This document shows positions 2,684-34,261 of a stretch of 64,000 bases of DNA, piece by piece. A program made the translations under genes and the position numbers. Every line of letters starts with the position of its first letter. Within the stretch, counting starts at the first letter, position 1. Source of the DNA: an uncultured Eubacteriales bacterium (GTDB lineage Bacteria; Bacillota; Clostridia; Oscillospirales; CAG-382); NCBI GenBank assembly GCA_900551295.1, contig URVJ01000003.1, positions 68,593-132,592 on the forward strand, given 5' to 3'. A model generated the notes under the pieces. It searched no databases. It was not told the DNA's origin and was given only the letters and a program-made list of their open reading frames with translations.

Positions 2684-3601
2684 TTACTGTTTACCGGTGA
2701 GCTTTGCGATTTCTTCAGCAAAGTTATCCTCGCGCTTTTCAAGACCCTCGCCCTTTTCGTAGCGAACGAATCCCTTAACGGTAACATTTCCGCCTGCTGC
2801 CTTTGCTGCGTCTGCAACATACTTTGCAACGGATTCCTTATCGCCTTTAACGTATTCCTGTTCCATAAGGCAGTTTGTCTCATAGAACTTGCCGAGCTTA
2901 CCGTTAACCATCATCTGGAGAACCTTTTCGGGCTTATTTGCGTTCTTTTCGTCGTTCTTGATCTGAGCGAGAACGATTTCCTTTTCAGCGTCGACAGCCT
3001 CTGCGGGAACGTTGTCCTTATCGAGGTACTTCGGGCTCATTGCTGCTGCCTGAAGTGCAAGGTTCTTGAAGATTTCCTTTGCTGCGTCTTCGGAAGTGGT
3101 AGCTTCGCCGTATACGATTACGCCGATAGTGCCGCCGCCGTGTACATAGGAATTTGCAAGTCCTTCAACGATGGTGAAACGTCTGATAGAGAGCTTTTCG
3201 CCTATCTGGAATATCTTATCCTTGAGTATAGCCTCAACGGTATCGTCGGTACCTACGTACTTTGCTGCGAGAAGTGCGTCTACGTCAGCAGGCTTTACTG
3301 CAAGTATGGTCTTGAGAAGATCCTTTACAAAGTTTCTGAAAGTTTCGTTCTTTGCAACGAAGTCTGTCTCGGAGTTTACTTCGATCATGGCGGTGAGATT
3401 GCCTTCCGAAAGTATATCTACGATACCTTCCGCAGCAATTCTGCTCGCCTTTTTCTCAGCAACGGCAAGTCCCTTTTCGCGAAGAATCTTAACTGCTTCT
3501 TCCTTATCGCCGTTTGCTTCGGTGAGTGCCTTTTTGCACTCCATCATGCCTATACCGGTCTGCGCGCGCAGCTCGGATACGTCCTTAGCTGTAAAGTTCA
3601 T
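2684..3601 (-). CDS. tsf: Translation elongation factor Ts
   Basis: N-terminal UBA-like TAKDVSELRAQTGIGMMECKKALTEANGD. GGGAGGA RBS. Located downstream of rpsB. Confidence 0.95.
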   Translation of the reverse strand: MNFTAKDVSELRAQTGIGMMECKKALTEANGDKEEAVKILREKGLAVAEKKASRIAAEGIVDILSEGNLTAMIEVNSETDFVAKNETFRNFVKDLLKTILAVKPADVDALLAAKYVGTDDTVEAILKDKIFQIGEKLSIRRFTIVEGLANSYVHGGGTIGVIVYGEATTSEDAAKEIFKNLALQAAAMSPKYLDKDNVPAEAVDAEKEIVLAQIKNDEKNANKPEKVLQMMVNGKLGKFYETNCLMEQEYVKGDKESVAKYVADAAKAAGGNVTVKGFVRYEKGEGLEKREDNFAEEIAKLTGKQ

Positions 3602-6129: not shown

Positions 6130-7182
6130 TTACTTTCCGCCGTTCTCTCTGACGATGGATTCCCAGAGTCCGTTCAGATAAGCCGCGCCGAGCGCTCTGT
6201 CGTAAAGTCCGTAGCCCGGTCTGCCCTGTTCGCCCCAGATCATGCGTCCGTGGTCGGGTCTTACGTATCCGTCGAAGTTTACGTCGTATGCAGCTTTCAT
6301 TATCTCGTACATATCGAGAGAGCCGCATTCCGTCTTATGCGCCGTTTCGTTGAAGTCGCGTCCGCCCATATGCTTGATATTTCTCGCATGAAGGAAGTGT
6401 ATCTTTCCCTCGCCGCCGAATCTGCGGATAAGGTGCGGAATATCGTTATCGGGATTTACGCCGAGAGAGCCTGTGCAGAGCGTAAGTCCGTTATACGGCG
6501 AATCGACAAGCTTTAAAAATCTTTCAAGGTTCTTTTCGTTTGTGATTATTCTCGGAAGTCCGAATATGCCCCATGGCGGATCGTCCGGATGTATTGCCAT
6601 CTTGACGTCGTATTCCTCGCAAACGGGTATAATTGCCTTTAAGAAATACTCTGTATTCTTCCAGAGCGCCTCTTCGTCGATGCTCTTATACTCGTCGAGC
6701 AGCGCGTCAAGTCCCGCCTTTGTATAGCTTGCGTCCCAGCCGGGCAGCGAAAGGTCGCCCTTTCTCGGATCCATTGCAAGAACCTCTGCGTCGCGGTAGA
6801 TAAGCGACGTCGAACCGTCGGCATTCTTATAATCAAGGCTTGAGCGCAGCCAGTCGAACACCGGCATAAAGTTATAGCATATTACCTTAACGCCCGCCTT
6901 TCCGAGACGTCTGATATTCTCGCAGTAAACCTCGATATACTTATCTCTCGAAGGCTTGCCGAGTTTGATGTCCTCATGCACCGGAACGCTCTCGACTATA
7001 TCGAACACAAGTCCGTGATCTGAACATTTCTTTTTTATGTCCTCTATCGCCTCAGTCGGCCAGACCTCTCCCGGAGGAACGGAATAAACCGCCGAAACGA
7101 CGCTTCTCATTGCAGGTATCTGCGATATGTATTCCAGCGTTACCGGATCACTGTCGCCGTACCAGCGAAAACTCATTTTCAT
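6130..7182 (-). CDS. uxuA: Mannonate dehydratase
   Basis: MKMSFRWYG start preceded by AAGGAGA. Matches UxuA motifs [29 protein letters not shown] and RPDHG. The longer ORF-track start at 7257 has no RBS. Confidence 0.85.
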
Positions 7183-7213
7183 GTTTGTTTTCTCCTTATT
7201 ATATATAAATTGT

Positions 7214-8209
7214 TTATTTTGCCTTTGCTTTCTGTATGCGTATATCGCTTCCCTCAAATCTGAACGAACGGAAACTGCCTATAAGCCTTGACGTTATTCT
7301 GTCGTCGTAGGTTTTCTTGAAAAGCTGTGTATTATCGAGGTTTGTGCTTATTATCATAGGCTTTGCGCCGTTAATGCGCGTGTTTATGAGATTATACAGC
7401 ACGGACTGCGTAAAGGAATTGACAAATTCCGTGCCGAGATCGTCTATGATAAGCAGGTCGCACGAGAAAAATCTGTCAGTCTCGTTTCCTGCGTTCTCGT
7501 CGCGCTCAAATCTCGAAAGCTCAAACGCACGTATTATATTCTGCGCGCTTTCATATACGACGTCATAGCCTTTTTCGATTATTCCGCGTGCGACAGCCGT
7601 CGTGAGATGGGTTTTGCCAAGTCCCGTCTTTCCTATAAACAAAAGGTTTGACGCATTTTCAGGGTTTCCGAAATCGCTGACGTACTTTTTCGACTTTTCC
7701 AAAATACTCGACATGACCTGTCTCGGGCTGAGCTTGCCGTCGGGAGCTTTATCAGAATAAAAGTCAAGTTCAAAGTTTTCAAAGCCCTGATGTTTGAGAG
7801 TGCTCCCCAATCCCGCGCTTTCAAAAGCCGCCTGCGCCAGCGCTTTTCTCTTGCAGGAACACATTTCTACGCCTACATATCCCGTGTCGCGGCATTTAGG
7901 GCAGGTATATTTAACTTCCGTAAAATCTTCGGCAAATCCGTTTTGTTTCAACAACTCTTTTCTGTGATTCTGAAGATCGAGATTTTCTTTTTTCAGCTTT
8001 GCCATACGTTCTTCAAGCCCGTCTTTGCCCATGAGAGCCGCACGGTACACGTTAAGTCCCGTAAGAGAAAGAGCGTGGTCTATCTCTTTTATCATAGGAC
8101 ATTTTTCGTAGACAAGCTCTGTATGCTCAGCCGCCGTCTGTTCGGCGCGTTTTCTTCTTGCCTCGATAAGCTCGTCAGCTTTTTTTACCGCGGTTTCCGG
8201 ATATGACAT
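7214..8209 (-). CDS. DnaC/DnaI-like AAA+ ATPase with an N-terminal zinc-binding motif
   Basis: Walker [11 protein letters not shown], Walker B LLIIDDLG, and CPKCRDTGY...CSC upstream. Start taken at MSYPE. Confidence 0.7.
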
Positions 8210-8362
8210 AAAAATCCGCACCGTCCTTTCAGCATTATTTCGATTGTATTTTATCACATTTAATTCTTCAAGTCAATATTTATACGCAAACACGGCACGA
8301 TTTTTGTAAAATTTTATTTTTATGTAAATTTTCGCTTTTCTTCGCAAAAGAGCATTTTTGTA

Positions 8363-8391
8363 TTGAACAAAGCGCGGTTTTATGGTAAAAT
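8363..8391 (+). promoter_or_regulatory. mnmA promoter
   Basis: TTGAAC, 17-nt spacer, TGgTAAAAT (extended -10). Confidence 0.5.
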
Positions 8392-8426
8392 AAACACGGA
8401 AACCAACTCATAAAGGAAGATAATCC

Positions 8427-9500
8427 ATGTGCAAAAAAACAATCACGGCAATGAGCGGAGGCGTTGACTCATCTGTTGCGGCTCTGTTATTAAACGAGCG
8501 CGGATACGAAAACGTCGGCATAACCTTAAAGCTTTACGACAACGAGGACGTCGGAATATCGCGCGAAAAGACCTGCTGCAGCATAGATGACATAAACGAC
8601 GCGCAGAGAGTCTGCGCAAAGCTCGGAATACCGCACTACGTATTCAACTTTTCTGACGATTTTGCAAAATACGTCATAGACAACTTTACCGAAACGTACC
8701 TCTGCGGAAAAACGCCAAATCCCTGCATCGAATGCAACAGGCATATAAAGTTCAGAATTCTTCTTGAGCGCGCAAAGCAGATGGATTTTGATTATATTGC
8801 GACGGGTCACTATTGCAGCACGGAACGCGACAGCGCTACGGGACGGTATATGTTAAAGAAAGCTCTCGACGACACCAAGGATCAGACATATGTTCTGTAC
8901 ATGCTGACGCAGGAGCAGCTCTCGCATACGCTTTTCCCTCTCGGAGGAATGACAAAGAAGCAGGTGCGCGAAATAGCCGAGCAAAGCGGTCTTATAAACG
9001 CGCGCAAGCACGACAGCCAGGACATATGCTTTGTCAAGGACGGCGACTACCGTTCGTTTATCGAAAACCGCACGGGAAAGCACTTTGAATGCGGCGACTT
9101 CCGTCTTGCCGACGGCACAAAAGTCGGCACTCACAAGGGCATTATCGGCTACACCACCGGACAGCGAAAAGGTCTCGGCATTGCGTACTCAGAGCCGTTA
9201 TACGTCGTGAGCAAGGACGTTGAAAACAACGTGGTCACGGTCGGAAAGCAAAACGAGCTGTTTTCAAAAAGAGTAAAGGTAAAAGACGTAAACTTCATGC
9301 CGTTTGAAAGCCTTTCGTCGCCTATGAAAATAAACGCAAAACTGCGCTACAAGCAAAAGGAAAGTCCGTGTACCATGTTTCCCGACGGCGAAAACTCGGT
9401 AATTCTCGAATTCGACGATCCTCAGAGAGCCGTTACATCGGGACAGGCAGCCGTTTTCTATGACGGAGAGTACGTTGTCGGCGGCGGCACGATAGTATGA
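8427..9500 (+). CDS. mnmA: tRNA 2-thiouridine(34) synthase
   Basis: PP-loop AMSGGVDSSVAA, TPNPCIECN, and the C-terminal GQAAVFYDG motif. Confidence 0.9.
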   Translation: MCKKTITAMSGGVDSSVAALLLNERGYENVGITLKLYDNEDVGISREKTCCSIDDINDAQRVCAKLGIPHYVFNFSDDFAKYVIDNFTETYLCGKTPNPCIECNRHIKFRILLERAKQMDFDYIATGHYCSTERDSATGRYMLKKALDDTKDQTYVLYMLTQEQLSHTLFPLGGMTKKQVREIAEQSGLINARKHDSQDICFVKDGDYRSFIENRTGKHFECGDFRLADGTKVGTHKGIIGYTTGQRKGLGIAYSEPLYVVSKDVENNVVTVGKQNELFSKRVKVKDVNFMPFESLSSPMKINAKLRYKQKESPCTMFPDGENSVILEFDDPQRAVTSGQAAVFYDGEYVVGGGTIV

Positions 9501-9545
9501 CCTTGCGCTTTTAAGGCAGTTTATGTTCTTTTTTCAAAAAAGGTC

Positions 9546-9574
9546 TTGACAAAATATTTTTTACATGATATAAT
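9546..9574 (+). promoter_or_regulatory. Consensus sigma-A promoter for tRNA-Ser
   Basis: TTGACA (9546-9551), 17-nt spacer, TATAAT (9569-9574). Confidence 0.7.
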
Positions 9575-9614
9575 AATCAAGCTGTCGAAAGCACGGCGGC
9601 ATTTTATATCAAAC

Positions 9615-9706
9615 GGAAAGATGGCTGAGCTGGTCTAAGGCGCACGACTGGAAATCGTGTTTCGGCTAATACCCGAACCAGGGTTCGAATCCCTGTCTTT
9701 CCGCCA
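9615..9706 (+). tRNA. tRNA-Ser (anticodon GGA) with a long variable arm and encoded CCA
   Basis: Hand-folded. Acceptor GGAAAGA/TCTTTCC; anticodon stem CACGA/TCGTG with loop CTGGAAA; variable arm TTCGG/CCGAA; T-arm CAGGG-TTCGAAT-CCCTG; ends in GCCA. Confidence 0.9.
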
Positions 9707-9710
9707 TAAC

Positions 9711-9750
9711 AGAACTGCGGTTTTAATATGAGCCGCAGTTCTTTTTTATT
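9711..9750 (+). terminator. Intrinsic terminator after tRNA-Ser
   Basis: 10-bp stem AGAACTGCGG/CCGCAGTTCT followed by a run of T. Confidence 0.8.
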
Positions 9751-9769
9751 GTTTTCCAAGTTGCAAAGG

Positions 9770-9799
9770 ACAAAAAACAAGTCCGGAAAAGCTCCGGAC
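9770..9799 (-). terminator. Intrinsic terminator after wecB
   Basis: Stem GTCCGGA/TCCGGAC (9781-9799). On the minus strand it is followed by TTGTTTTTTG. Confidence 0.6.
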
Positions 9800-24631: not shown

Positions 24632-25720
24632 GTGTCAAAGGCTTATTTGATTTTGGAAAACGGCAGGATTTTCGAGGGTGAATCCTTCGGAGCAAAAGCC
24701 GAAACAACCGGCGAAGTCGTATTCACGACCGGAATGACGGGGTACCTTGAAACGCTCACCGATCCGAGCTATTCTGGACAGATCGTAGTTCAGACCTTTC
24801 CGCTTATAGGAAACTACGGTGTGATACCCGAAGATTTTGAAAGCGAAAAACCTCATCTCAAAGGCTATGTCGTAAGAGAAGTCTGCGACAAACCGTCAAA
24901 CTTCAGATGCGGCGGAAAACTCTCGGATTTTCTCGAAAAGAGCGGCATCACGGGAATTTGCGGCATAGACACGAGAGCGCTCACGAGAATAGTCCGCGAA
25001 CACGGCGTCATGAACGGCAGCATTGTTTTTGACTGCGAAAATCTCGAAGAAAAGCTGAAAACCGTAAAGAATTACTCCGTAAAAGACCCGGTAAAGCTTG
25101 TAAGCGCTAAAACTGCGGTTTTGACCTCTCCGTTTGCAAAATACAAGGTTGCATTATATGATTTCGGTGCAAAAAAGAGCATTGCTGACGAGCTTATCGA
25201 ACGCGACTGCGAGGTTCATGTATTCAGTGCCGATTCAAGCGCCGAAGATATATTAAGCATAAAGCCCGACGGCATAATGCTTTCCAATGGCCCGGGCGAC
25301 CCCAAGGACAACGTATTTGTCATTGAACAGCTTAAAATACTTGCAGAGAAAAAAATCCCGATATTCGGAATATGTCTCGGGCATCAGCTCCTTGCTCTCT
25401 CTCAGGGCGCGGACACGCACAAATTAAAGTACGGTCACAGAGGCGCAAACCAGCCTGTCGTAGAAACCGCCACAGGCAAGGTATTCATCACAAGCCAAAA
25501 CCACGGCTACGCCGTATCAACGGAAAATCTTCCGTCAAACTGCCGCGTATCTTTCATTAACGCAAACGACTCGACCTGCGAAGGTATCGAATACACCGAT
25601 ATGCCGGCATTTACGGTACAGTTCCACCCCGAGGCAAGCGCAGGTCCGCTTGACACAAAGTTTTTATTTGACAAATTCTTGGAGCTTATAAAGGAGGTAA
25701 ATTTCAATGCCGTTAAATAA
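24632..25720 (+). CDS. carA: Carbamoyl-phosphate synthase small (glutaminase) subunit
   Basis: GTG start after GGAGG. GICLGHQLL catalytic Cys motif and QFHPEA. Confidence 0.9.
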   Translation: MSKAYLILENGRIFEGESFGAKAETTGEVVFTTGMTGYLETLTDPSYSGQIVVQTFPLIGNYGVIPEDFESEKPHLKGYVVREVCDKPSNFRCGGKLSDFLEKSGITGICGIDTRALTRIVREHGVMNGSIVFDCENLEEKLKTVKNYSVKDPVKLVSAKTAVLTSPFAKYKVALYDFGAKKSIADELIERDCEVHVFSADSSAEDILSIKPDGIMLSNGPGDPKDNVFVIEQLKILAEKKIPIFGICLGHQLLALSQGADTHKLKYGHRGANQPVVETATGKVFITSQNHGYAVSTENLPSNCRVSFINANDSTCEGIEYTDMPAFTVQFHPEASAGPLDTKFLFDKFLELIKEVNFNAVK

Positions 25721-28700
25721 GGATATAAAACGCGTAATGGTAATCGGCTCAGGCCCTATAATTATAGGTCAGGCTGCGGAATTCGACTATGCCGGCGCAC
25801 AGGCTTGCCGCGCGCTCAAAGAAGCCGGTCTTGAAGTTATCCTCGTAAACTCAAATCCTGCAACCATTATGACCGACAACATAATGGCGGACAAAATATA
25901 TATCGAACCGTTAAATCTTGAAACGGTAAAGAGAATTATAGAAAAAGAACGTCCCGACAGTCTGCTGTCCTCGCTCGGCGGTCAGACAGGTCTTACGCTT
26001 TCAATGCAGCTTGCAAAAGAAGGCTTCCTTGACAAAATGGGCGTAAAGCTTCTCGGAGCAAAGCCCGAAACCATAGACAAAGCCGAGGACAGACAGATGT
26101 TCAAGGACACCATGGAATCTATCGGTCAGCCCACCATTCCGTCGAAGGTAGTTACGGACTTGAATTCGGCTCTCGCATTTGCCGAGGAAATAGGCTACCC
26201 GGTTATCGTCCGCCCCGCATTCACACTTGGCGGCACGGGCGGAGGTATTGCGCAGAACGTTGAAGAACTCACAGAGACCGCGACAAACGGACTCAGGCTC
26301 TCGCCCATTACCCAGATACTCGTGGAAAAGTGCATATCCGGCTGGAAAGAGATAGAATTTGAAGTAATGCGCGACAGCAAGGGCAACGCCATAACCGTGT
26401 GCAGCATGGAAAACTTTGACCCTGTCGGCATTCACACCGGCGACTCTATTGTTGCGGCTCCCTGTCTTACGCTTTCCGACAAGGAATATCAGATGCTGCG
26501 TACCGCGGCGCTGAAAATCATAAACACACTGAAAGTCGAAGGCGGCTGCAACTGCCAGTTTGCGCTCAATCCCGACAGCTTTGACTATGCGGTAATTGAA
26601 GTAAATCCGAGAGTTTCGCGTTCCTCGGCACTCGCGTCAAAGGCTACGGGCTATCCTATCGCAAAGGTTGCGACAAAAATCGCAATAGGCTACACGCTTG
26701 ACGAAATAACCAACGCCGTTACGGGCAAGACAAGCGCGTGCTTTGAACCGGCGCTCGACTATGTTGTGGTAAAATTCCCGAAGTGGCCGTTTGACAAATT
26801 CGTTTACGCCAAAAGAAAGCTCGGAACTCAGATGAAAGCGACGGGCGAGGTCATGGCTATCGGCCAGAGCTTTGAAGAGGCTCTCATGAAAGCCGTAAGA
26901 GGTGCGGAAATAAAGCACACAAGTTTAAATCAGCCCTCTCTTTACACACTTTCCGACGACGAACTCATAAGCATGATGAGAGAATGTACAGACGAGAGGC
27001 TTTTCGTGATATACGAGCTTTTAAAGCGCGGAAAGAGTACCGAATTTATCCACGAAGAAACAAAGATAGATATGTTCTTCCTCGAAAAGCTCATAAACAT
27101 TCTTGATATGGAAAATGTGCTTAAAAAAGGCGAAATTTCCGACAAGCTCTATCTTAAAGCAAAAAAAATGGGATTTACCGACAAGCACATCGAAGAACTG
27201 AGCGGAAAACCCGTCACGAACAAGCTGTATGCAGGCTTTAAGATGGTTGACACGTGCGCTGCCGAGTTCTCCGCGGAAACGCCTTACTTCTACTCGTCAT
27301 ACGACGAAGAAAACGAAGCTGCGGAATTTTTAGACGAGATAAAAGACAGAAAAAAGACTATAATCGTATTCGGTTCCGGTCCTATCAGAATAGGTCAGGG
27401 CATAGAATTCGACTATGCGTCGGTTCACTGCGTGCGCTCGCTCAAACAGCTCGGCTATGAGGTGGTTATCGTCAACAACAACCCCGAAACCGTCTCGACC
27501 GATTTTGACACTGCAGACAGACTTTACTTTGAACCGCTTACCGACGAGGACGTCATGAACATTCTCAAAACCGAAAAGCCTTACGGTGCGGTAGTCGCGT
27601 TCGGCGGTCAGACAGCAATAAAGCTTACATCGTTCTTGGACAAAATCGGCGTGAAAATTCTCGGCACAAGCGCGCAGAGCATTGACGCGGCAGAGGACAG
27701 AAAACTGTTCGACGCACTTCTCGAAAGACTTAATATCAAGCGTCCTGCCGGTTATACGGTATTTACCGAGGACGAGGCTCTCGCCGTTGCAAAGCGCATA
27801 GGCTATCCCGTTCTCATGCGTCCGTCATACGTTCTCGGCGGTCAGAACATGATAATAGCTCAGAACGACGACGATATAAAAGAGTATATGAAAATTATAC
27901 TCACCCACACCGACAAGAACCCTATACTCATAGACAAGTATCTCATGGGACTTGAAATAGAAGTCGACGCCATATGCGACGGCAAGGATATTCTTATCCC
28001 CGGAATTATGGAACACGTTGAAAGAACCGGCGTACATTCGGGAGACTCCATTGCGGTATATCCGGCGCAAAAGCTTTCGGACAGCATGAAAGAGGAAATT
28101 CTCGAAACTACGAAAAATCTTGCTCTTGCACTCAACACCCGAGGTCTTGTCAACATTCAGTACCTCATTCACGACGACGGACTGTACGTTATAGAAGTAA
28201 ACCCGCGTTCCTCGCGAACCATTCCCTATATCAGCAAGGTTACGGGAATACCCATGGTCGATATTGCAACGCGCACCATGATAGGCAAAGAATCAAGCCC
28301 CGAAAAGACAGAAACTTTGGAGGAGATCGGATACGGCACGGGAATTTATCCGGACAGCCCGTACATTGCGGTAAAGGTGCCGGTATTCTCGTTTGAAAAG
28401 CTCGGCGGAGTTGACTCGATGTTAGGTCCCGAAATGAAATCGACCGGCGAGGTTCTCGGCATTGCAAGCTCTCTCAAAGAGGCTATCTGCAAAGGCCTTA
28501 TAGCCGCAGGCTACAAAATGACGAGAAAGGGCGGAATACTTATAACCGTCCGCGACAGCGACAAGGAGGAAATCCCCGAAGTCGCCGAAAAGTTCTACAA
28601 TCTCGGATTCAAGATATATGCCTCCGAAGGAACGGGAAAAACGCTGCGTGCTGCCGAAATCCCCTGCGAAACGGTAAACGGCAGCGAAAACAAGCTTTCG

Positions 28701-29768
28701 CTTATTGACAGCGGAAAGATCGACTATGTAATATCTACCTCGGCGCACGGCAGAACGCCGACGAGAAACAGCGTTATATTAAGACGCAAAGCAATCGAAA
28801 GGAGTATCCCCTGCCTTACCTCTCTCGACACCGCAAATGCAGTCGCGGACAGTCTTATCTCGCGCTTTACACCGGTTTCGACTGAGCTTGTGGACATTAA
28901 CAACATGAGAAAAGAAAAAGTAAAGCTTGAATTCACAAAGATGCAGGGCTGCGGAAACGACTACATCTACTTCAACTGTTTCTCTCAGAAGATAAACAAC
29001 CCCGAAGGCTTATCGGTAAGCCTGTCCGACAGACACTTCGGCATAGGCGGAGACGGCGTTGTGCTTATATGCCCGTCAGACGTTGCCGACGCCAAGATGA
29101 GAATGTTCAACCTTGACGGAAGCGAAGGCAAGATGTGCGGAAACGCCATACGCTGTGTAGGAAAATATCTCTACGACAACAAGATGATAGACAAGACCAC
29201 AACTACCATAGAAACGCTGTCGGGCATAAAGACATTGCAGCTCAACGTCAAGAACGGCAAAGTGGTTTCGGCGTGCGTAGACATGGGCAAAGCCGAGCTT
29301 AAACCCGAACTTATACCCGTAAAGCTCCACGGCGACAAGATCGTTGCTTATCCCGTTACAATAGGCTACAAGGAATACCGCATTACCTGCGTTTCAATGG
29401 GAAATCCGCACTGCGTTGTATTCTACGGAAACGACGAAAGCGTAGACGAGCTTGATCTCGAAACGATAGGCCCGATGTTTGAGAGAAACGAGCTGTTCCC
29501 CGAAAGAGTAAACACGGAATTTATAAAGGTTATCAACGACCACACATTGAAAATGCGCGTATGGGAACGCGGAAGCGGTGAAACATGGGCTTGCGGTACA
29601 GGCGCGTGCGCGGCTGCGGTTGCGGCTTGTCTGTGCGGTTACTGCAAGAAAAACACGGACATTACCGTAAAATTAAAGGGCGGCGATCTCATAATACGCT
29701 ACACCGACGACGCGGTATATCTTACCGGAAACGCCGACATAAGCTATACCGGCGAAATTACTATCTGA
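25707..29768 (+). CDS. carB: Carbamoyl-phosphate synthase large subunit fused in frame to diaminopimelate epimerase
   Basis: Residues 1-1066 form a complete CarB: two ATP-grasp halves, the oligomerisation domain and the MGS-like domain ending ...TSLDTANAV...ELVDINN. Residues 1067-1353 (from the ATG at 28905) form a complete DapF: FTKMQGCGNDY, KMCGNAIRC and ETWACGTGACAA, with both catalytic cysteines. There is no stop codon between them. Confidence 0.85.
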   Translation: MPLNKDIKRVMVIGSGPIIIGQAAEFDYAGAQACRALKEAGLEVILVNSNPATIMTDNIMADKIYIEPLNLETVKRIIEKERPDSLLSSLGGQTGLTLSMQLAKEGFLDKMGVKLLGAKPETIDKAEDRQMFKDTMESIGQPTIPSKVVTDLNSALAFAEEIGYPVIVRPAFTLGGTGGGIAQNVEELTETATNGLRLSPITQILVEKCISGWKEIEFEVMRDSKGNAITVCSMENFDPVGIHTGDSIVAAPCLTLSDKEYQMLRTAALKIINTLKVEGGCNCQFALNPDSFDYAVIEVNPRVSRSSALASKATGYPIAKVATKIAIGYTLDEITNAVTGKTSACFEPALDYVVVKFPKWPFDKFVYAKRKLGTQMKATGEVMAIGQSFEEALMKAVRGAEIKHTSLNQPSLYTLSDDELISMMRECTDERLFVIYELLKRGKSTEFIHEETKIDMFFLEKLINILDMENVLKKGEISDKLYLKAKKMGFTDKHIEELSGKPVTNKLYAGFKMVDTCAAEFSAETPYFYSSYDEENEAAEFLDEIKDRKKTIIVFGSGPIRIGQGIEFDYASVHCVRSLKQLGYEVVIVNNNPETVSTDFDTADRLYFEPLTDEDVMNILKTEKPYGAVVAFGGQTAIKLTSFLDKIGVKILGTSAQSIDAAEDRKLFDALLERLNIKRPAGYTVFTEDEALAVAKRIGYPVLMRPSYVLGGQNMIIAQNDDDIKEYMKIILTHTDKNPILIDKYLMGLEIEVDAICDGKDILIPGIMEHVERTGVHSGDSIAVYPAQKLSDSMKEEILETTKNLALALNTRGLVNIQYLIHDDGLYVIEVNPRSSRTIPYISKVTGIPMVDIATRTMIGKESSPEKTETLEEIGYGTGIYPDSPYIAVKVPVFSFEKLGGVDSMLGPEMKSTGEVLGIASSLKEAICKGLIAAGYKMTRKGGILITVRDSDKEEIPEVAEKFYNLGFKIYASEGTGKTLRAAEIPCETVNGSENKLSLIDSGKIDYVISTSAHGRTPTRNSVILRRKAIERSIPCLTSLDTANAVADSLISRFTPVSTELVDINNMRKEKVKLEFTKMQGCGNDYIYFNCFSQKINNPEGLSVSLSDRHFGIGGDGVVLICPSDVADAKMRMFNLDGSEGKMCGNAIRCVGKYLYDNKMIDKTTTTIETLSGIKTLQLNVKNGKVVSACVDMGKAELKPELIPVKLHGDKIVAYPVTIGYKEYRITCVSMGNPHCVVFYGNDESVDELDLETIGPMFERNELFPERVNTEFIKVINDHTLKMRVWERGSGETWACGTGACAAAVAACLCGYCKKNTDITVKLKGGDLIIRYTDDAVYLTGNADISYTGEITI

Positions 29769-29808: not shown

Positions 29809-30987
29809 ATGAAACTCAACAAAAACTATTCGCGCCTTGCGCAGAGCTATCTGTTTTCAACCATTGCAAAAAAGGTAAACGAATATACGGCAGAAAATCC
29901 GTCCGCCGAAATTATACGTCTCGGAATAGGCGACGTCACGCTGCCGCTTGCCCCTGACGTTGTAAAAGCGCTTGAGGACGCAAGCCGCGAAATGGGCAAA
30001 AAGGAGACTTTCCGCGGTTACGGTCCCGAACAAGGATACGATTTTCTCAAAGCAAGCATTGCGCAGTACTACGGGAAAAAAGGTGTGTCACTCGAAAACG
30101 ACGAGATATTTATCTCGGACGGTGCAAAGAGCGATCTCGGAAACATTCTCGATTTATTCGACACGGACAACACCGTTCTTGTACCCGATCCCGTATACCC
30201 CGTCTACGTTGACACAAACGTTATGGCAGGCAGAAAGATAGTCTATATCAACGCAAACGAAAGCAACGGATTTTTACCCTTGCCGGACAGCAATGTAAAT
30301 GCGGACATTATATACATCTGTTCTCCGAACAATCCGACGGGCGCCGTCTACACCAAAGAGCAGCTTTCCAAATGGGTGGACTATGCGCTTGAACACGGCG
30401 CGGTAATTCTCTTTGACTCGGCATACGAGGCGTTTGTCCGCGACAGCTCGCTCCCGACAAGCATCTATCAGATACCGGGTGCAAAAAAGTGCGCGGTAGA
30501 GTTCTGCTCCTTCTCAAAGACTGCGGGATTTACAGGCACGCGCTGCGGATATACGGTCGTTCCGAACGGTCTTGTTTTCGACGGCATGAGCCTTAACAAA
30601 ATGTGGCTCAGACGCCAGACGACAAAGTTCAACGGCGTTCCGTACATTATTCAGAAAGGCGCCGCCGCAGTATTTACCGACGAAGGTCAGAAACAGGTAC
30701 ATGAAAATCTTGACTACTACATTCAGAACGCGCGCGTAATCTCGGACGCCTTTGACAAAATGGGAATATGGTACACGGGCGGCAAGAACTCGCCGTACAT
30801 CTGGCTCAAGTGCCCGAACGGCATGGGTTCGTGGGAATATTTCGACTTTCTGTTAAAGAACGCGGGCGTTGTAGGAACTCCCGGCGAAGGATTCGGCAAG
30901 AACGGCGAAGGATTTTTCAGGCTTACGGCGTTCAACACGCACGAAAACACGGTAAAAGCAGTGGAAAAAATCAAGTCGGTTATGTAA
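29809..30987 (+). CDS. dapL: LL-diaminopimelate aminotransferase
   Basis: N-terminus LNKNYSRLAQSYLFSTIAKKVNEYTAENP..IIRLGIGDVT is typical of DapL. SFSKTAGFTG carries the PLP lysine. Confidence 0.85.
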   Translation: MKLNKNYSRLAQSYLFSTIAKKVNEYTAENPSAEIIRLGIGDVTLPLAPDVVKALEDASREMGKKETFRGYGPEQGYDFLKASIAQYYGKKGVSLENDEIFISDGAKSDLGNILDLFDTDNTVLVPDPVYPVYVDTNVMAGRKIVYINANESNGFLPLPDSNVNADIIYICSPNNPTGAVYTKEQLSKWVDYALEHGAVILFDSAYEAFVRDSSLPTSIYQIPGAKKCAVEFCSFSKTAGFTGTRCGYTVVPNGLVFDGMSLNKMWLRRQTTKFNGVPYIIQKGAAAVFTDEGQKQVHENLDYYIQNARVISDAFDKMGIWYTGGKNSPYIWLKCPNGMGSWEYFDFLLKNAGVVGTPGEGFGKNGEGFFRLTAFNTHENTVKAVEKIKSVM

Positions 30988-31010
30988 AAAAACGCATGCG
31001 GATAATATTA

Positions 31011-31040
31011 AAGCACCCTTTTACGGGTGCTTGTTTTTTT
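31011..31040. terminator. Bidirectional intrinsic terminator between dapL and the convergent gene
   Basis: Stem AAGCACCC/GGGTGCTT followed by GTTTTTTT. Confidence 0.8.
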
Positions 31041-31048
31041 ATAACATT

Positions 31049-32068
31049 TCATTCAATAAGCAGACAATCGGAAAGAATAACATTGTCGCCGTCAAAGATT
31101 AACATATATGTTCCGCTTTTTCCGGTACACTTGCCTATTACCTTTATACTGTCGCCCTTTCGCAATGCTGAAACAACTTCCGTCTGAGATGTGCTGAAAT
31201 TCAATTGCACAGCCGCAAAATATTTGCCGCTTTGCAGCAGAACACATGGTTGTGAACTGTCAAGTTTGTCAATTTCACTGACAGTTCCGGTTACTATAAC
31301 GACTTTGTCAGTATACTCCTCATCTGCATTTACAATATTTTCCTCATATTCTGCCATAATTTCTGTTGCAGTAAAATTGGGAAACTGAGCATATTGCTCA
31401 TTAATATAAGTGCTCATATTTTTAGCGGTTTCGGTATCGGGATAATTTTCTTCGATACCTTTGCATATTTCCAAAGCGTCTCTGTATCTGCCGTCAGAAA
31501 ATTTTTCTGTTGCCTTTTCAAGTTCCGAAACAGCCTTTTCCTCATCGGTCAGTTCTTCTCTGGCAGACGAAACGCTTTCCTTTACATTTCCGGTTTTGTC
31601 TGCAGTATCAATTACTTTTTCTTTGTCCGAATCACTTGAAAGCAATATGAAAAATATGAATAAGAAAAACAATGAAACAACAACCAACGGGACGATTACC
31701 GCCGGACCGAGACCGTTTTTTGGCACCTGAGTTTTCAAAGAATTATAGGAGTATGTCCCGTTATTCTGCGAAAAATTATTTGAGATCTGAGAAAAATTAC
31801 CCATTTCCAGCTCGATTTTCCCAGACCATGTATTTAACTTGGCATTAATCAAAGTTATGTATTGATTTTCCGGAATATCCACCATTACTGTTTTCTCTAC
31901 ATTGCCGCAAAATTTAAATGACAGCGTATGATTTCCGGGCTGCGTATAAATATTCAGTTCCGAACGGCTTCCGAGTTTTCCGACTTGAAATCCGTCAAGT
32001 TCAACCGTGTAGATCCGCAAAGGTCCGATTGATGACTGCCTTAAAATTTTAATTAGGTACTGTTCCAT
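31049..32068 (-). CDS. Uncharacterised single-pass membrane protein with a C-terminal OB-fold (tRNA_anti-like) domain
   Basis: Start at MEQYL after GGAGGA. N-terminal beta-rich domain; TM helix GPAVIVPLVVVSLFFLFIFFILL; C-terminus EYEENIVNADEEYTDKVVIVTGTV... resembles the OB-fold tRNA_anti-like family (from memory). Confidence 0.5.
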   Translation of the reverse strand: MEQYLIKILRQSSIGPLRIYTVELDGFQVGKLGSRSELNIYTQPGNHTLSFKFCGNVEKTVMVDIPENQYITLINAKLNTWSGKIELEMGNFSQISNNFSQNNGTYSYNSLKTQVPKNGLGPAVIVPLVVVSLFFLFIFFILLSSDSDKEKVIDTADKTGNVKESVSSAREELTDEEKAVSELEKATEKFSDGRYRDALEICKGIEENYPDTETAKNMSTYINEQYAQFPNFTATEIMAEYEENIVNADEEYTDKVVIVTGTVSEIDKLDSSQPCVLLQSGKYFAAVQLNFSTSQTEVVSALRKGDSIKVIGKCTGKSGTYMLIFDGDNVILSDCLLIE

Positions 32069-32150
32069 AAAAATTCCTCCGTTTTTTATATACTTTTGCG
32101 CACTCAAACTCAGCTTTGCAAAATAACAACGGAACAACTATTATTCTGAA

Positions 32151-32375
32151 AAACAAAAAAGTGCGCTCAACAGAAGAACGCACCGAAAAATGCAAACTCC
32201 TATTGTTGCCACACAATTTTCAACAAAGTCGGGAACTCTCCACGCTTGCCATGCGGAACTTGCATTTTTACCAAATTCATACACGGCAAGTGCGCAAAAA
32301 AGTATAAGGGTAAAACGAAATTTCCCTATATAAAAATATAGGGCGCCCGGGATTCTGTTGATTAAATTGTGTGGC
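32151..32375 (-). ncRNA. Candidate structured RNA: orphan riboswitch-like leader of 31049-32068, or a stand-alone sRNA
   Basis: Has its own promoter. An 18-bp closing helix (32376-32356 / 32225-32207) starts at the predicted +1. It encloses a three-helix core and is followed by an 8-bp/U6 terminator (32183-32151). There is no internal ORF with an RBS. Confidence 0.45.
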
Positions 32376-32381
32376 ATTTGT

Positions 32382-32410
32382 ATTATAACACGTCGGCCTA
32401 AAAAAATCAA
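32382..32410 (-). promoter_or_regulatory. Extended -10 promoter driving the structured RNA
   Basis: Minus strand reads TTGATT (32410-32405), 17-nt spacer, TGtTATAAT (-10 at 32387-32382). Confidence 0.55.
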
Positions 32411-32470
32411 CATTTTTGTTCGTGCTATTCTGAATAAACGCACACAATAAAATTAAAAACCCGCTCATTT

Positions 32471-32668
32471 TCAGAACAGGCTCTCGCTTATCTTTACAGC
32501 CGAATCATAATCATTTATCGCTTCAATCGCAAGGCTGAGCTGTTCAAGCGAATGTATATATTCGGAATAACTTGAAAGTTTGAGCTGCATTTCGACACTC
32601 TGCGAAAAATAAAGCTTTCTCGACGACGAGCTTTGCCGCAAAAGCTCTCTCAAATTACCGTAAAGCAA
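32471..32668 (-). CDS. Hypothetical small helical protein (65 aa, TTG start)
   Basis: GGAGGTG lies 9 nt upstream of the TTG. No recognisable family and no clear promoter. Confidence 0.3.
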   Translation of the reverse strand: MLYGNLRELLRQSSSSRKLYFSQSVEMQLKLSSYSEYIHSLEQLSLAIEAINDYDSAVKISESLF

Positions 32669-32794
32669 TGTTTTTTACACCTCCGCGCGTCTATCTTTAC
32701 GTATTATCGGCATAATTTTGGGGTATTATTCGCAAATGTTCCCACGAAATTCGGGAATACTGTAAGTAAAAACAGTTTTACGGAGAATTTTTAC

Positions 32795-34261
32795 ATGAGC
32801 TATTCTCAAAATCAAAAGCGTTCCGAAAATGCGCTGTTTGAAAGCACTCCGATAATTCGCGCCGTATTCTCGCTTGCGCTTCCTGCCGTAATTTCGGCTC
32901 TCGCGGTGACGCTTTACGGTTTTGCCGACGCATATTTTCTCGGACGCGGCAAAAATCCGGATATGCTTGCGGCAGTCTCTGTCTGCGTTCCTTTAAGCGC
33001 AGCCGCAACGGGCATTTCGGCTCTTTTCGGCACGGGAGGCGCCGGCGTAATTGCGGCAAGTCTCGGAAAAAACAATATCCGGCGTGCAAGATCGGCATTT
33101 ATTTTCTGCACAGCCGGAACAGCTTTTCTCAGCGCAGCATTTTCGGCGGGCGTATTTCTATTTTCGGACAAAATTCTGCCGCTTATAGGCGCAAAAAAAG
33201 AAACGGCGGAATATGCGTCGTCCTACCTTCTCCGCACGGTGGTTCTGGGCGCGGTTCCCGTTTCGCTTACCGGCTGTCTTTCTCAGCTTATACGTGCTCT
33301 CGGAAAGCCGGGTATATCGTCATTCGGAACAATGCTTCCGGCACTCTTAAACACGGCGCTCGATGCGGTATTTGTCTTGTTCATATACGGCAAGGGACGC
33401 GAGATATATGCCGTCGGCGACGCATTTTTGATAAGCGCCGCTGCAAGCTGTGCGTTTTTTATTATTTATATGCTGTTTTCAAAAAACGCATTAAAAAACA
33501 AATCCGTCAAAAAGGACGGCACAAAGAATGAGGGCAGACATATACAAAAAGGCGCATTTTCCGAGACGTTCCGCATAGGCTTTCCGTCGGCTGCGGCAAT
33601 TATACTTGCGACGTTTTCAATCGTAATATCGAATTTTTTCATATCAAGCTGCGGTTCTGCGGCTGTCGCGGGACTAGGCGCGGCAAAACGTCTTTCATCA
33701 CTTGCCTTTAACGTAAACACGGCATTTTCCCAAAGTATTCTGCCGCTTATATCATACTGCTTTGCATCAAAGAACCGTGAGCGCATGAAAAAAGCCGCAG
33801 CGTTGAATTTTTCTGCGGCTCTTGTATTATCTCTTTTATATATGGCGGTATCTTTGATCTATGCGAAAAACATTGTCGGATTATTTATCGGGAACGACAA
33901 AACAGCGGAATTCGGTGCGAAGTTTCTGAAGCTGCTCAGTCCGGCGTTTCCGATGTGCGCGGCAAGTTTCTGCATATGCTCTTTTCTGCAAGGCTGCGGC
34001 AAACCGAAACCCTCTCTTGCCGTCACGGCTTTAAGAAAAGGCACGCTCGACGTCATTCTTATGTATCTTGCATTTGTTTTCGGGAACATTTATCTTGTCG
34101 CTCTTGCAACGACCGTTACCGAAGCAGTTTCGGCAACAGCAGCGTGCATTATCTTAATACGGTTTCTCAAAGGTTTTCAAAATCAAAGGTACAGCTCACG
34201 GGATAGTGGTCGGAAAGATAAATTCCGTGCATCTCATCAGTCCAAAGATCAAGGGAAGTAA
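32795..34261 (+). CDS. MATE family efflux transporter
   Basis: Twelve hydrophobic segments and an N-terminus of the form ...TPIIRAVFSLALPAVISAL. Start at MSYSQ with a GGAGA RBS. The last roughly 30 codons are a polar tail antisense to the next gene. Confidence 0.8.
   Translation: MSYSQNQKRSENALFESTPIIRAVFSLALPAVISALAVTLYGFADAYFLGRGKNPDMLAAVSVCVPLSAAATGISALFGTGGAGVIAASLGKNNIRRARSAFIFCTAGTAFLSAAFSAGVFLFSDKILPLIGAKKETAEYASSYLLRTVVLGAVPVSLTGCLSQLIRALGKPGISSFGTMLPALLNTALDAVFVLFIYGKGREIYAVGDAFLISAAASCAFFIIYMLFSKNALKNKSVKKDGTKNEGRHIQKGAFSETFRIGFPSAAAIILATFSIVISNFFISSCGSAAVAGLGAAKRLSSLAFNVNTAFSQSILPLISYCFASKNRERMKKAAALNFSAALVLSLLYMAVSLIYAKNIVGLFIGNDKTAEFGAKFLKLLSPAFPMCAASFCICSFLQGCGKPKPSLAVTALRKGTLDVILMYLAFVFGNIYLVALATTVTEAVSATAACIILIRFLKGFQNQRYSSRDSGRKDKFRASHQSKDQGK

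Follow-up and report, generated by a model that had tools for sequence, protein, structure and literature searches.

The window analysed here, a 64-kb stretch of DNA from an uncultured Eubacteriales metagenome-assembled genome of the human gut, carries on its minus strand a short element in which a promoter, a helix-closed segment and a terminator stand in front of a gene for a membrane protein. The question raised by this locus is what kind of object the element is: an RNA acting on the gene behind it, an RNA acting elsewhere, or DNA that moves or inverts. It had been proposed, in an initial annotation made from the sequence, to be an orphan riboswitch-like leader or a novel small RNA (sRNA). 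We find that it is a real structured RNA, a divergent, long member of a large gut-phage family that is absent from Rfam. The carriers of this family are phages of human-gut Clostridia. We estimate at roughly one in two the probability that the element is a cis-acting transcription attenuator gating the gene downstream, called the cargo gene below.

Coordinates are positions in the window, and the element and its parts lie on the minus strand. The promoter, closing helix, inner hairpins and terminator were all located where they had been annotated. The sigma-A-type promoter (32382–32410) consists of TTGATT, a 17-nucleotide spacer and TGtTATAAT; it matches the consensus at 10 of 12 positions, and its upstream TG makes it an extended −10 promoter. 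The closing helix, P1, pairs a 5′ arm, UGCCACACAAUUU (also TGCCACACAATTT; 32364–32376), with a 3′ arm, AAAUUGUGUGGCA (also AAATTGTGTGGCA; 32207–32219). These arms are the left and right inverted repeats at the DNA level. Described earlier as a perfect 12-bp helix, the repeat was found to be perfect over 13 bp (32376–32364 with 32219–32207). Between the arms lies the core (32220–32363), and its minimum-free-energy fold gave an extension of P1, an 8-bp hairpin (32343–32324) and a long hairpin containing G-U pairs (approximately 32295–32241). P1 is followed by the tail AACAAU and a purine-rich strand A (AGGAGUUUGCA; together 32191–32206), the 5′ strand of a predicted antiterminator. Next comes strand B (GGUGCGUUCUUCUG; 32171–32184), which can pair with A in the antiterminator or with strand C in the terminator. 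Strand C (GAGCGCAC), the 3′ strand of the terminator, and its U6 tract occupy 32155–32168; an intrinsic terminator followed by a T run is predicted at 32184–32160.

The minus-strand RNA (232 nucleotides) folded at −84.5 kcal/mol, against −54.4 ± 4.2 kcal/mol for shuffled sequences (z = −7.15, 0/200), and the plus strand of the same stretch reached a z of only −4.14. In the full-transcript fold the tail (32205–32191) was paired with the 5′ strand of the terminator, and the terminator was not formed; the competing pairings described earlier are thus present. The element occurs once in the window.

The first relatives were found by blastn against GenBank phages, where the 3′ third of the element matched two unverified gut phage records (E = 2e-9). 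Both records repeat the whole layout, and their closing helices (GCGACACAAUUCA/UGAAUUGUGUCGC and GCGACACAAGUUUA/UAAACUUGUGUCGC) have changed in a compensatory manner. Pattern scans of IMG/VR then gave at least 120 contigs in each of two sets; counted over the matches listed, at least about 177 elements with 69 distinct cores were recovered in all. A covariance model (R1) built from 27 gut-phage copies, with the window excluded, matched positions 32155–32375 of the window over the full model length, 1–158 (72.5 bits, E = 1e-13), the sole significant match in the 64 kb, and a second model (R2) gave 48.1 bits (E = 1.4e-8). The window element shares with the family the extended −10 about 6 nucleotides before P1, the P1 strands GCCACACAAU/AUUGUGUGGC, the motif GGUAAAA, the AACAAU tail, strands A, B and C, the U tract and a gene on the same strand. 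The minus-strand RNA that had been suspected is therefore genuine, and its supposed orphan status is replaced by membership of a family with more than 170 copies in gut phages.

The absence of any known riboswitch class, reported earlier, was borne out. Neither the window element nor 11 further family members matched Rfam 15 at the gathering score, which also disposes of 6S RNA, Y RNA and raiA as candidates, and matches at E ≤ 10 were at chance level, none of them relevant. No match was found by blastn against plasmids, and a main-family query gave no blastn match among GenBank phages. Searches of the literature, by sequence strings and by topic, turned up no earlier description; in the supplementary material of Fremin & Bhatt 2021 they covered the first 200 of 408 files.

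Members of the family share a strict anatomy. The extended −10 (TGnTAnAnT) ends exactly 6 nucleotides before P1 in 157 of 171 copies, and the RNA is for this reason predicted to begin at the first base of P1 or within one base of it. P1 itself (GCCACACAAUCU/AGAUUGUGUGGC) is near-invariant in sequence and is paired in 96.7% of the cells of an alignment of 82 copies. It is followed by an asymmetric internal loop with a conserved AUA and by P2, a helix of 10–14 bp whose sequence differs wholly between subfamilies while its complementarity is kept; all 10 of its pairs covary. P3, an A/U hairpin, contains GGUAAAA, and in the main family it is followed by a CU-rich single strand, UUCUCUCUUUACUCAU. 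In the window the variant is a long one, with a core of 144 nucleotides against 79–98 in the main family and with one extra hairpin. GGUAAAA is common to this copy and the phage copies; the long hairpin of the window copy carries the family motif GGUAAAAAUG (32272–32263) in its loop, and the copy lacks the CU-rich strand. The three-way-junction or 6S-like shape first suggested for the element thus describes this long variant and does not extend to the family, in which the core consists of P1, the internal loop, P2 and P3.

Selection on the RNA was evident at several levels. Across the 82-copy alignment paired cells make up 95.5%, and in 25 of 39 pairs both partners have changed. Covariation scored 0.335; shuffles gave 0.133 (0/500), and slid partners no more than 0.074. 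The alignment was guided by the model and hence leans toward its structure. For the terminator helix the paired fraction is 98.2% of cells, with 5 of 10 pairs changed on both sides. When the core was folded on either strand, the forward strand was the more stable in 28 of 29 sequence clusters (mean difference −6.6 kcal/mol, p = 2e-8), and G-U pairs were more frequent on it than on its complement. Selection therefore acts on the RNA of that strand, and the earlier use of G-U pairs as a sign of a minus-strand RNA in the window holds for the family at large.

Two kinds of DNA motif accompany the promoter. Many phage copies carry AAAGTGGGCATTTGGCCA and CATAGCACAA..AAATGTCAAGA before it, at about −110 and at −75 to −50 from P1, which may be operator or UP-like sequences; the window keeps AATAGCACGAACAAAAATGTTGA (32434–32405). 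In nearly all members −10-like hexamers (CACAAT, then TAATAT, CATATA or similar) occur at +5 to +18 of the predicted transcript (32371–32358 in the window), and these could cause sigma-dependent pausing close to the promoter.

Beyond P1 the order of segments is constant. The invariant AACAAU and the purine-rich strand A come first; a U-rich loop separates A from strand B (GGUGCGUCUCUC), a further loop separates B from strand C (GGGGCGCAC), and U5–7 closes the series. The A:B hairpin has a predicted stability of −17 to −27 kcal/mol and the B:C hairpin of −14 to −22 kcal/mol. The two are mutually exclusive in every subfamily and in the window. Strands A and B still pair in 85.8% of cells, compared with no more than 62% once the partner is slid. 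A covarying structured domain in the 5′ leader is thus followed by an expression platform, as in riboswitches generally. The likeness to attenuators and riboswitch platforms, such as the trp leader with its 1:2, 2:3 and 3:4 options, lies in exclusive hairpins that share a strand (A:B versus B:C) directly after a P1-closed domain in a 5′ leader. Unlike those systems, the family has functionally heterogeneous cargo, the 3′ strand of P1 lies outside the antiterminator, and Rfam 15 has no entry for it.

If the element is an attenuator, its constitutive-looking extended −10 promoter would fire, transcription would begin at or near the first nucleotide of P1, and P1, P2 and P3 would fold. Strand A of the tail could then capture strand B to form the antiterminator, with read-through into the envelope gene; with strand B left free, the B:C terminator would form and a terminated RNA of about 150–220 nucleotides would be the default product. 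The choice might be triggered by a small ligand, a host factor, the kinetics of co-transcriptional folding or DNA inversion of the core. Because the gap between U tract and gene leaves no room for a separate promoter, the cargo would be expressed only by read-through.

Several further features of the platform were noted. Two natural deletion variants in IMG/VR (L347 and L352) lack the stretch between two CACTTTTT motifs, one closing strand A and the other closing the 3′ arm of the terminator. They are thus left without strand B and the terminator loop, and may be constitutive read-through alleles. Throughout the family a core strand GUGUAUUCUCUC stands against a terminator strand GUGCGUCUCUC, and strands A and C finish in a common CACUUUUU motif, as if the 3′ portion of the core had been partly duplicated to give the tail and terminator. 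Four segments with trp-leader-like 1:2, 2:3 and 3:4 options result, of which 1:2 would be a pseudoknot. In the window, 19 nucleotides of the core (UUAUACUUUUUUGCGCACU; 32289–32307) are 84% complementary to 32086–32104, just 5′ of the cargo ribosome-binding site; long-range pairing between core and cargo ribosome-binding region was not above shuffles across the family. A leader peptide or small open reading frame was rejected on inspection of the sequences: no Shine-Dalgarno sequence was present, and the reading frames ranged from 4 to 40 codons, inconsistently between subfamilies.

The position of the element relative to genes is as constant as its fold. Of 122 loci, 117 have a gene with a Shine-Dalgarno sequence on the same strand that begins no more than 300 nucleotides past the U tract, typically after 20–50 nucleotides (range 20–90, with 86 in the window), and a terminator of its own directly follows the cargo gene. 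The genes themselves vary. They belong to at least 10 unrelated families, and 94 of the 117 products have a predicted membrane helix or lipobox; examples are a PASTA-domain membrane protein, a DUF4839 lipoprotein, a DUF6591 protein, a zinc-ribbon membrane protein and, in the window, a PF12869 protein. PADLOC recognised no known defence family among the cargo proteins. Given this variety, the downstream gene does not represent a fixed regulon.

With its own promoter, leader, gene and terminator, the unit is therefore an autonomous phage "moron". Morons are promoter-gene-terminator units such as lambda bor and lom. Like them, the unit stands between conserved phage modules, has variable and often envelope-related cargo, and is present or absent between close relatives. 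It differs from them in keeping a structured leader with an internal terminator before every cargo, so that the regulatory module is conserved and the gene is swapped. In the main lineage the unit occupies one fixed site, after small early genes and before genes for a VRR-NUC-like nuclease, an exonuclease and a 915-amino-acid YonO-like RNA polymerase, which are present in 93–96% of loci with enough flanking sequence. The divergent copies (the window, L094, L095, L130, L198 and L354) have none of these neighbours, and no phage protein is for that reason an obligatory partner. The polymerase itself, encoded at 7034–9790 of phage contig L098 and by homologues past most phage copies, is a single-subunit enzyme (phrog_4291, E = 0) with a C-terminal resolvase-type helix-turn-helix or sigma-70 region-4-like domain, and it defines the phage lineage of the main RNA family.

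The copy in the window shows that the module has also entered a chromosome. Promoter, leader RNA and cargo gene form a 1,428-bp cassette (31042–32469, minus strand) that is absent from a sister genome, L014. By blastn, window positions 30708–31041 correspond to 5900–6233 of L014 (95%) and 32470–32900 to 6235–6662 (91%). L014, a close GTDB representative in which DapL and CarB-DapF are 99% identical, has the same neighbours without the RNA and the cargo gene, and tblastn found no match there to the membrane-protein gene. The flanks are housekeeping genes: carA, a carB-dapF fusion and dapL on one side, and genes for a MATE transporter, an EEP-family protein and a PstS-like protein on the other. 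No target-site duplication was found at the ends of the insertion. An identical element in the same orientation is present in 8 of 8 contigs of the window's species.

The window cargo gene (31049–32068, minus strand), preceded by the ribosome-binding site GGAGG about 86 nucleotides past the U tract, encodes 339 amino acids with one predicted membrane helix and a PF12869 (tRNA_anti-like) domain. Synteny at the cargo gene gave no lead: homologues of the protein (38–59% identity) were found without the RNA, next to phage, resolvase or integrase genes, and no close relative was present in IMG/VR. A DapL scan of GTDB genomes yielded the cassette-free sister genome and no further copies of the RNA. 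Synteny at the MATE gene was uninformative because of the isolation of the lineage: the next full-length homologue is 36% identical and only a 72%-identical fragment lies between.

A number of observations count against attenuation. Double changes in A:B are few and its covariation is weak, because strand B hardly varies. The probability of the terminator ran from 0.01 to 0.96 in nested-fold thermodynamics, which leaves the default state uncertain. Promoter, start site, termination and read-through are all predictions. Cargo from so many families shares no single pathway or transport function from which a signal or ligand might be guessed. The sequence of P1 is conserved far beyond the need of a helix while P2 drifts freely; this extreme conservation is the main argument that something recognises P1, as DNA or as RNA. 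Finally, a promoter of its own, a helix-buried 5′ end, a strong terminator and a CU-rich strand would equally suit an sRNA acting in trans.

A rival reading is a programmed invertible leader switch, which is possible on thin evidence and which we are inclined to doubt. Here the P1 arms would be recombination repeats, and flipping of the core between a fixed promoter and a fixed terminator would toggle the envelope gene in a subpopulation of cells; such a switch could coexist with attenuation. Inverted cores do occur. In L375 the 113-nucleotide repeat-to-repeat element is the exact reverse complement of that in L363, although the 1,287 nucleotides of flanking sequence differ at 9 positions, and L368 is inverted relative to L394 and L335. 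Since the core is exactly inverted between them in L375 and L368, the P1 arms also act as DNA inverted repeats, a second role of the perfect closing helix that the initial annotation had not foreseen. L113 and L120 are palindromic rearrangements carrying inverted-orientation junctions: L113 has a perfect complement of its 3′ side in place of the 5′ side, and L120 carries two copies of the core, one inverted and one forward, that meet at the P2 stem. A switch would also suit repeats that are near-invariant at only 10–14 bp beside a freely drifting P2, a promoter and open reading frame that both lie outside the flipped segment, and cargo of surface proteins, a type that is often phase-variable.

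The layout recalls the cwpV switch of Clostridioides difficile, in which 195 bp lie between imperfect repeats of 21 bp, the two orientations readily occur side by side (about 5% ON) and RecV is the recombinase (Emerson et al. 2009, PMC2784873). There too an inverted-repeat segment lies between a fixed promoter and a cell-surface open reading frame, intrinsic termination in the leader has been proposed, and the host is a gut clostridium (PMC2784873). The cwpV product is reported to relate to the cell envelope and phage interaction (PMC4737114). The family differs from cwpV in its repeats of 10–14 bp, in an inversion found in about 1% of assembled contigs, in no recombinase having been found near the element, in a terminator outside the flipped segment and in a core that is a covarying structured RNA favoured in one orientation. 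A second comparison is the flgB flagellar switch of C. difficile, for which inversion by RecV and a role of Rho factor in flagellum and toxin phase variation are reported (PMC5386303, PMC7446863). It likewise has an invertible sequence 5′ of the regulated operon; unlike it, the family has an intrinsic terminator in both orientations.

The numbers speak against frequent switching. Inversions amounted to two exact and two rearranged cases among about 177 copies, a scan of all IMG/VR for the inverted pattern returned only 2 contigs, one subtype had 60 forward copies against 1 inverted, and all 8 contigs of the window's species were forward. Metagenome scans with the inverted junction of the window (CACACAATTTTCAACAAAGTCGGG; that of the L363 type is CACACAATCTCAATCAAGCCGC) gave no matches, and with its core one unrelated chance match, in a collection without the window's species. 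No recombinase was found within about 3.5 kb in the phage loci or, by tblastn with four recombinase queries, in the window; an integrase lies near L095 and L130 only, and a recombinase may act in trans on the P1 repeats. The inverted leader contains no new terminator, and equilibrium nested folding gave the terminator one and the same probability whichever way the core lay, since in such folds the core is insulated by P1. RNA-level selection for one orientation is strong. Template switching can produce short hairpin-flanked inversions in the absence of any recombinase, and L113 has the look of a quasi-palindrome corrected in this way. That one 12-bp sequence serves twice, as the closing helix of an RNA sensor domain and as DNA repeats for flipping, so that envelope or exclusion genes would be both signal-responsive and phase-variable in hundreds of gut prophages and stray cassettes, is a speculation we consider improbable.

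It is also unlikely, if somewhat less so, that the terminated RNA is itself the functional product, a trans-acting phage sRNA whose CU-rich strand UUCUCUCUUUACUCAU, which resembles an anti-Shine-Dalgarno sequence, would pair with host or phage ribosome-binding sites, read-through being incidental. The element's own promoter, its helix-buried 5′ end and a strong, conserved terminator with a U-rich stretch ahead of it are consistent with such an RNA. So are the CU-rich strand that the main family exposes, unpaired and invariant, between its helices, and the retention of the terminator in nearly all copies. The CU-rich strand is, however, not conserved in the divergent subfamily or the window, and a promoterless gene on the same strand is always close downstream. 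The conserved alternative hairpin on strand B would have no role in a simple sRNA, and complementarity of the core to the translation-initiation region of the cargo was not above shuffles (mean z = −0.69; 3 of 27 below −2).

Processive antitermination is a far weaker candidate, and we give it little credence. In an N/nut-like system the P3 hairpin, with its GNRA-like pentaloop, would be boxB, CUCUUUAC would be boxA and phrog_16126 the analogue of N; in a Q-like system the element would be a late leader of the kind of lambda PR′-6S-tR′. The likeness to lambda N/nut is one that we presume. The loop variants GGUAA, GGCAA and GCAA fit a GNRA fold and are accompanied by compensatory changes in the stem, the initial transcribed region contains −10-like hexamers, and the phrog_16126 proteins start with MGRAERRRAQK. 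One of these, encoded at 3068–3436 of L098, has 122 amino acids and an arginine-rich N-terminus (MGRAERRRAQK.EEKAK) reminiscent of lambdoid N proteins. Yet phrog_16126 lies upstream of only 48 of 107 copies and accompanies none of the divergent copies, the window included, and in L094, L095, L130 and L354 GGUAA falls within the stem and not the loop. A late-operon leader or a function linked to the YonO-like polymerase was rejected: the terminator immediately behind the cargo gene ends the transcription unit before it reaches the genes for the nuclease and the YonO-like polymerase, and none of the lineage proteins is present in divergent members.

A DNA element without RNA function, whether a miniature inverted-repeat transposable element (MITE), another palindromic mobile element or a retron-type msr/msd, would account for the perfect terminal inverted repeats, the location inside a strain-specific insertion and an a1/a2-like pairing of the ends (a resemblance only), and is hardly credible given covariation and strand asymmetry indicative of RNA, a fixed position in phages conserved together with the outside promoter and tail, a single copy in 64 kb within an inserted unit that is the 1.43-kb cassette and not the repeat-bounded segment, the lack of a target-site duplication (which upholds the initial annotation's doubt about a MITE), and neighbours that include no reverse transcriptase but a membrane protein, MATE, DapL and an EEP-family protein in the window, and nucleases and a YonO-like polymerase in phages.

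Two features of the chromosomal surroundings were recorded in passing. Directly 5′ of dapL, an open reading frame of 1,353 amino acids (25707–29768, plus strand) fuses the large subunit of carbamoyl-phosphate synthase to a C-terminal diaminopimelate epimerase (DapF) domain; it is split in the same-species contigs L003 and L006. Between the cassette and the MATE gene lies a small open reading frame (32471–32668, minus strand) of 65 amino acids from TTG or 39 from ATG, which is 91% conserved in the cassette-free L014 and has no Pfam match.

Taken as a whole, the element belongs to a conserved, uncurated RNA family, a leader attenuator or riboswitch-like RNA and possibly a cwpV-type switch as well. 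If the attenuator reading is correct, one conserved, portable module would control the accessory-gene slot of a very common human-gut phage lineage that encodes a YonO-like single-subunit RNA polymerase, and would move with its cargo into bacterial chromosomes. It would add a new class to the attenuators or riboswitch-like RNAs, and its more than 170 sequences, which covary strongly, are ready for Rfam-style curation and for the search for a ligand or factor. It would also open a way to study how prophages set the dosage of envelope and superinfection-related proteins. Should the rare inversions prove to be programmed, the family would be a second, far more widespread phase switch of the cwpV type, embedded in a leader.

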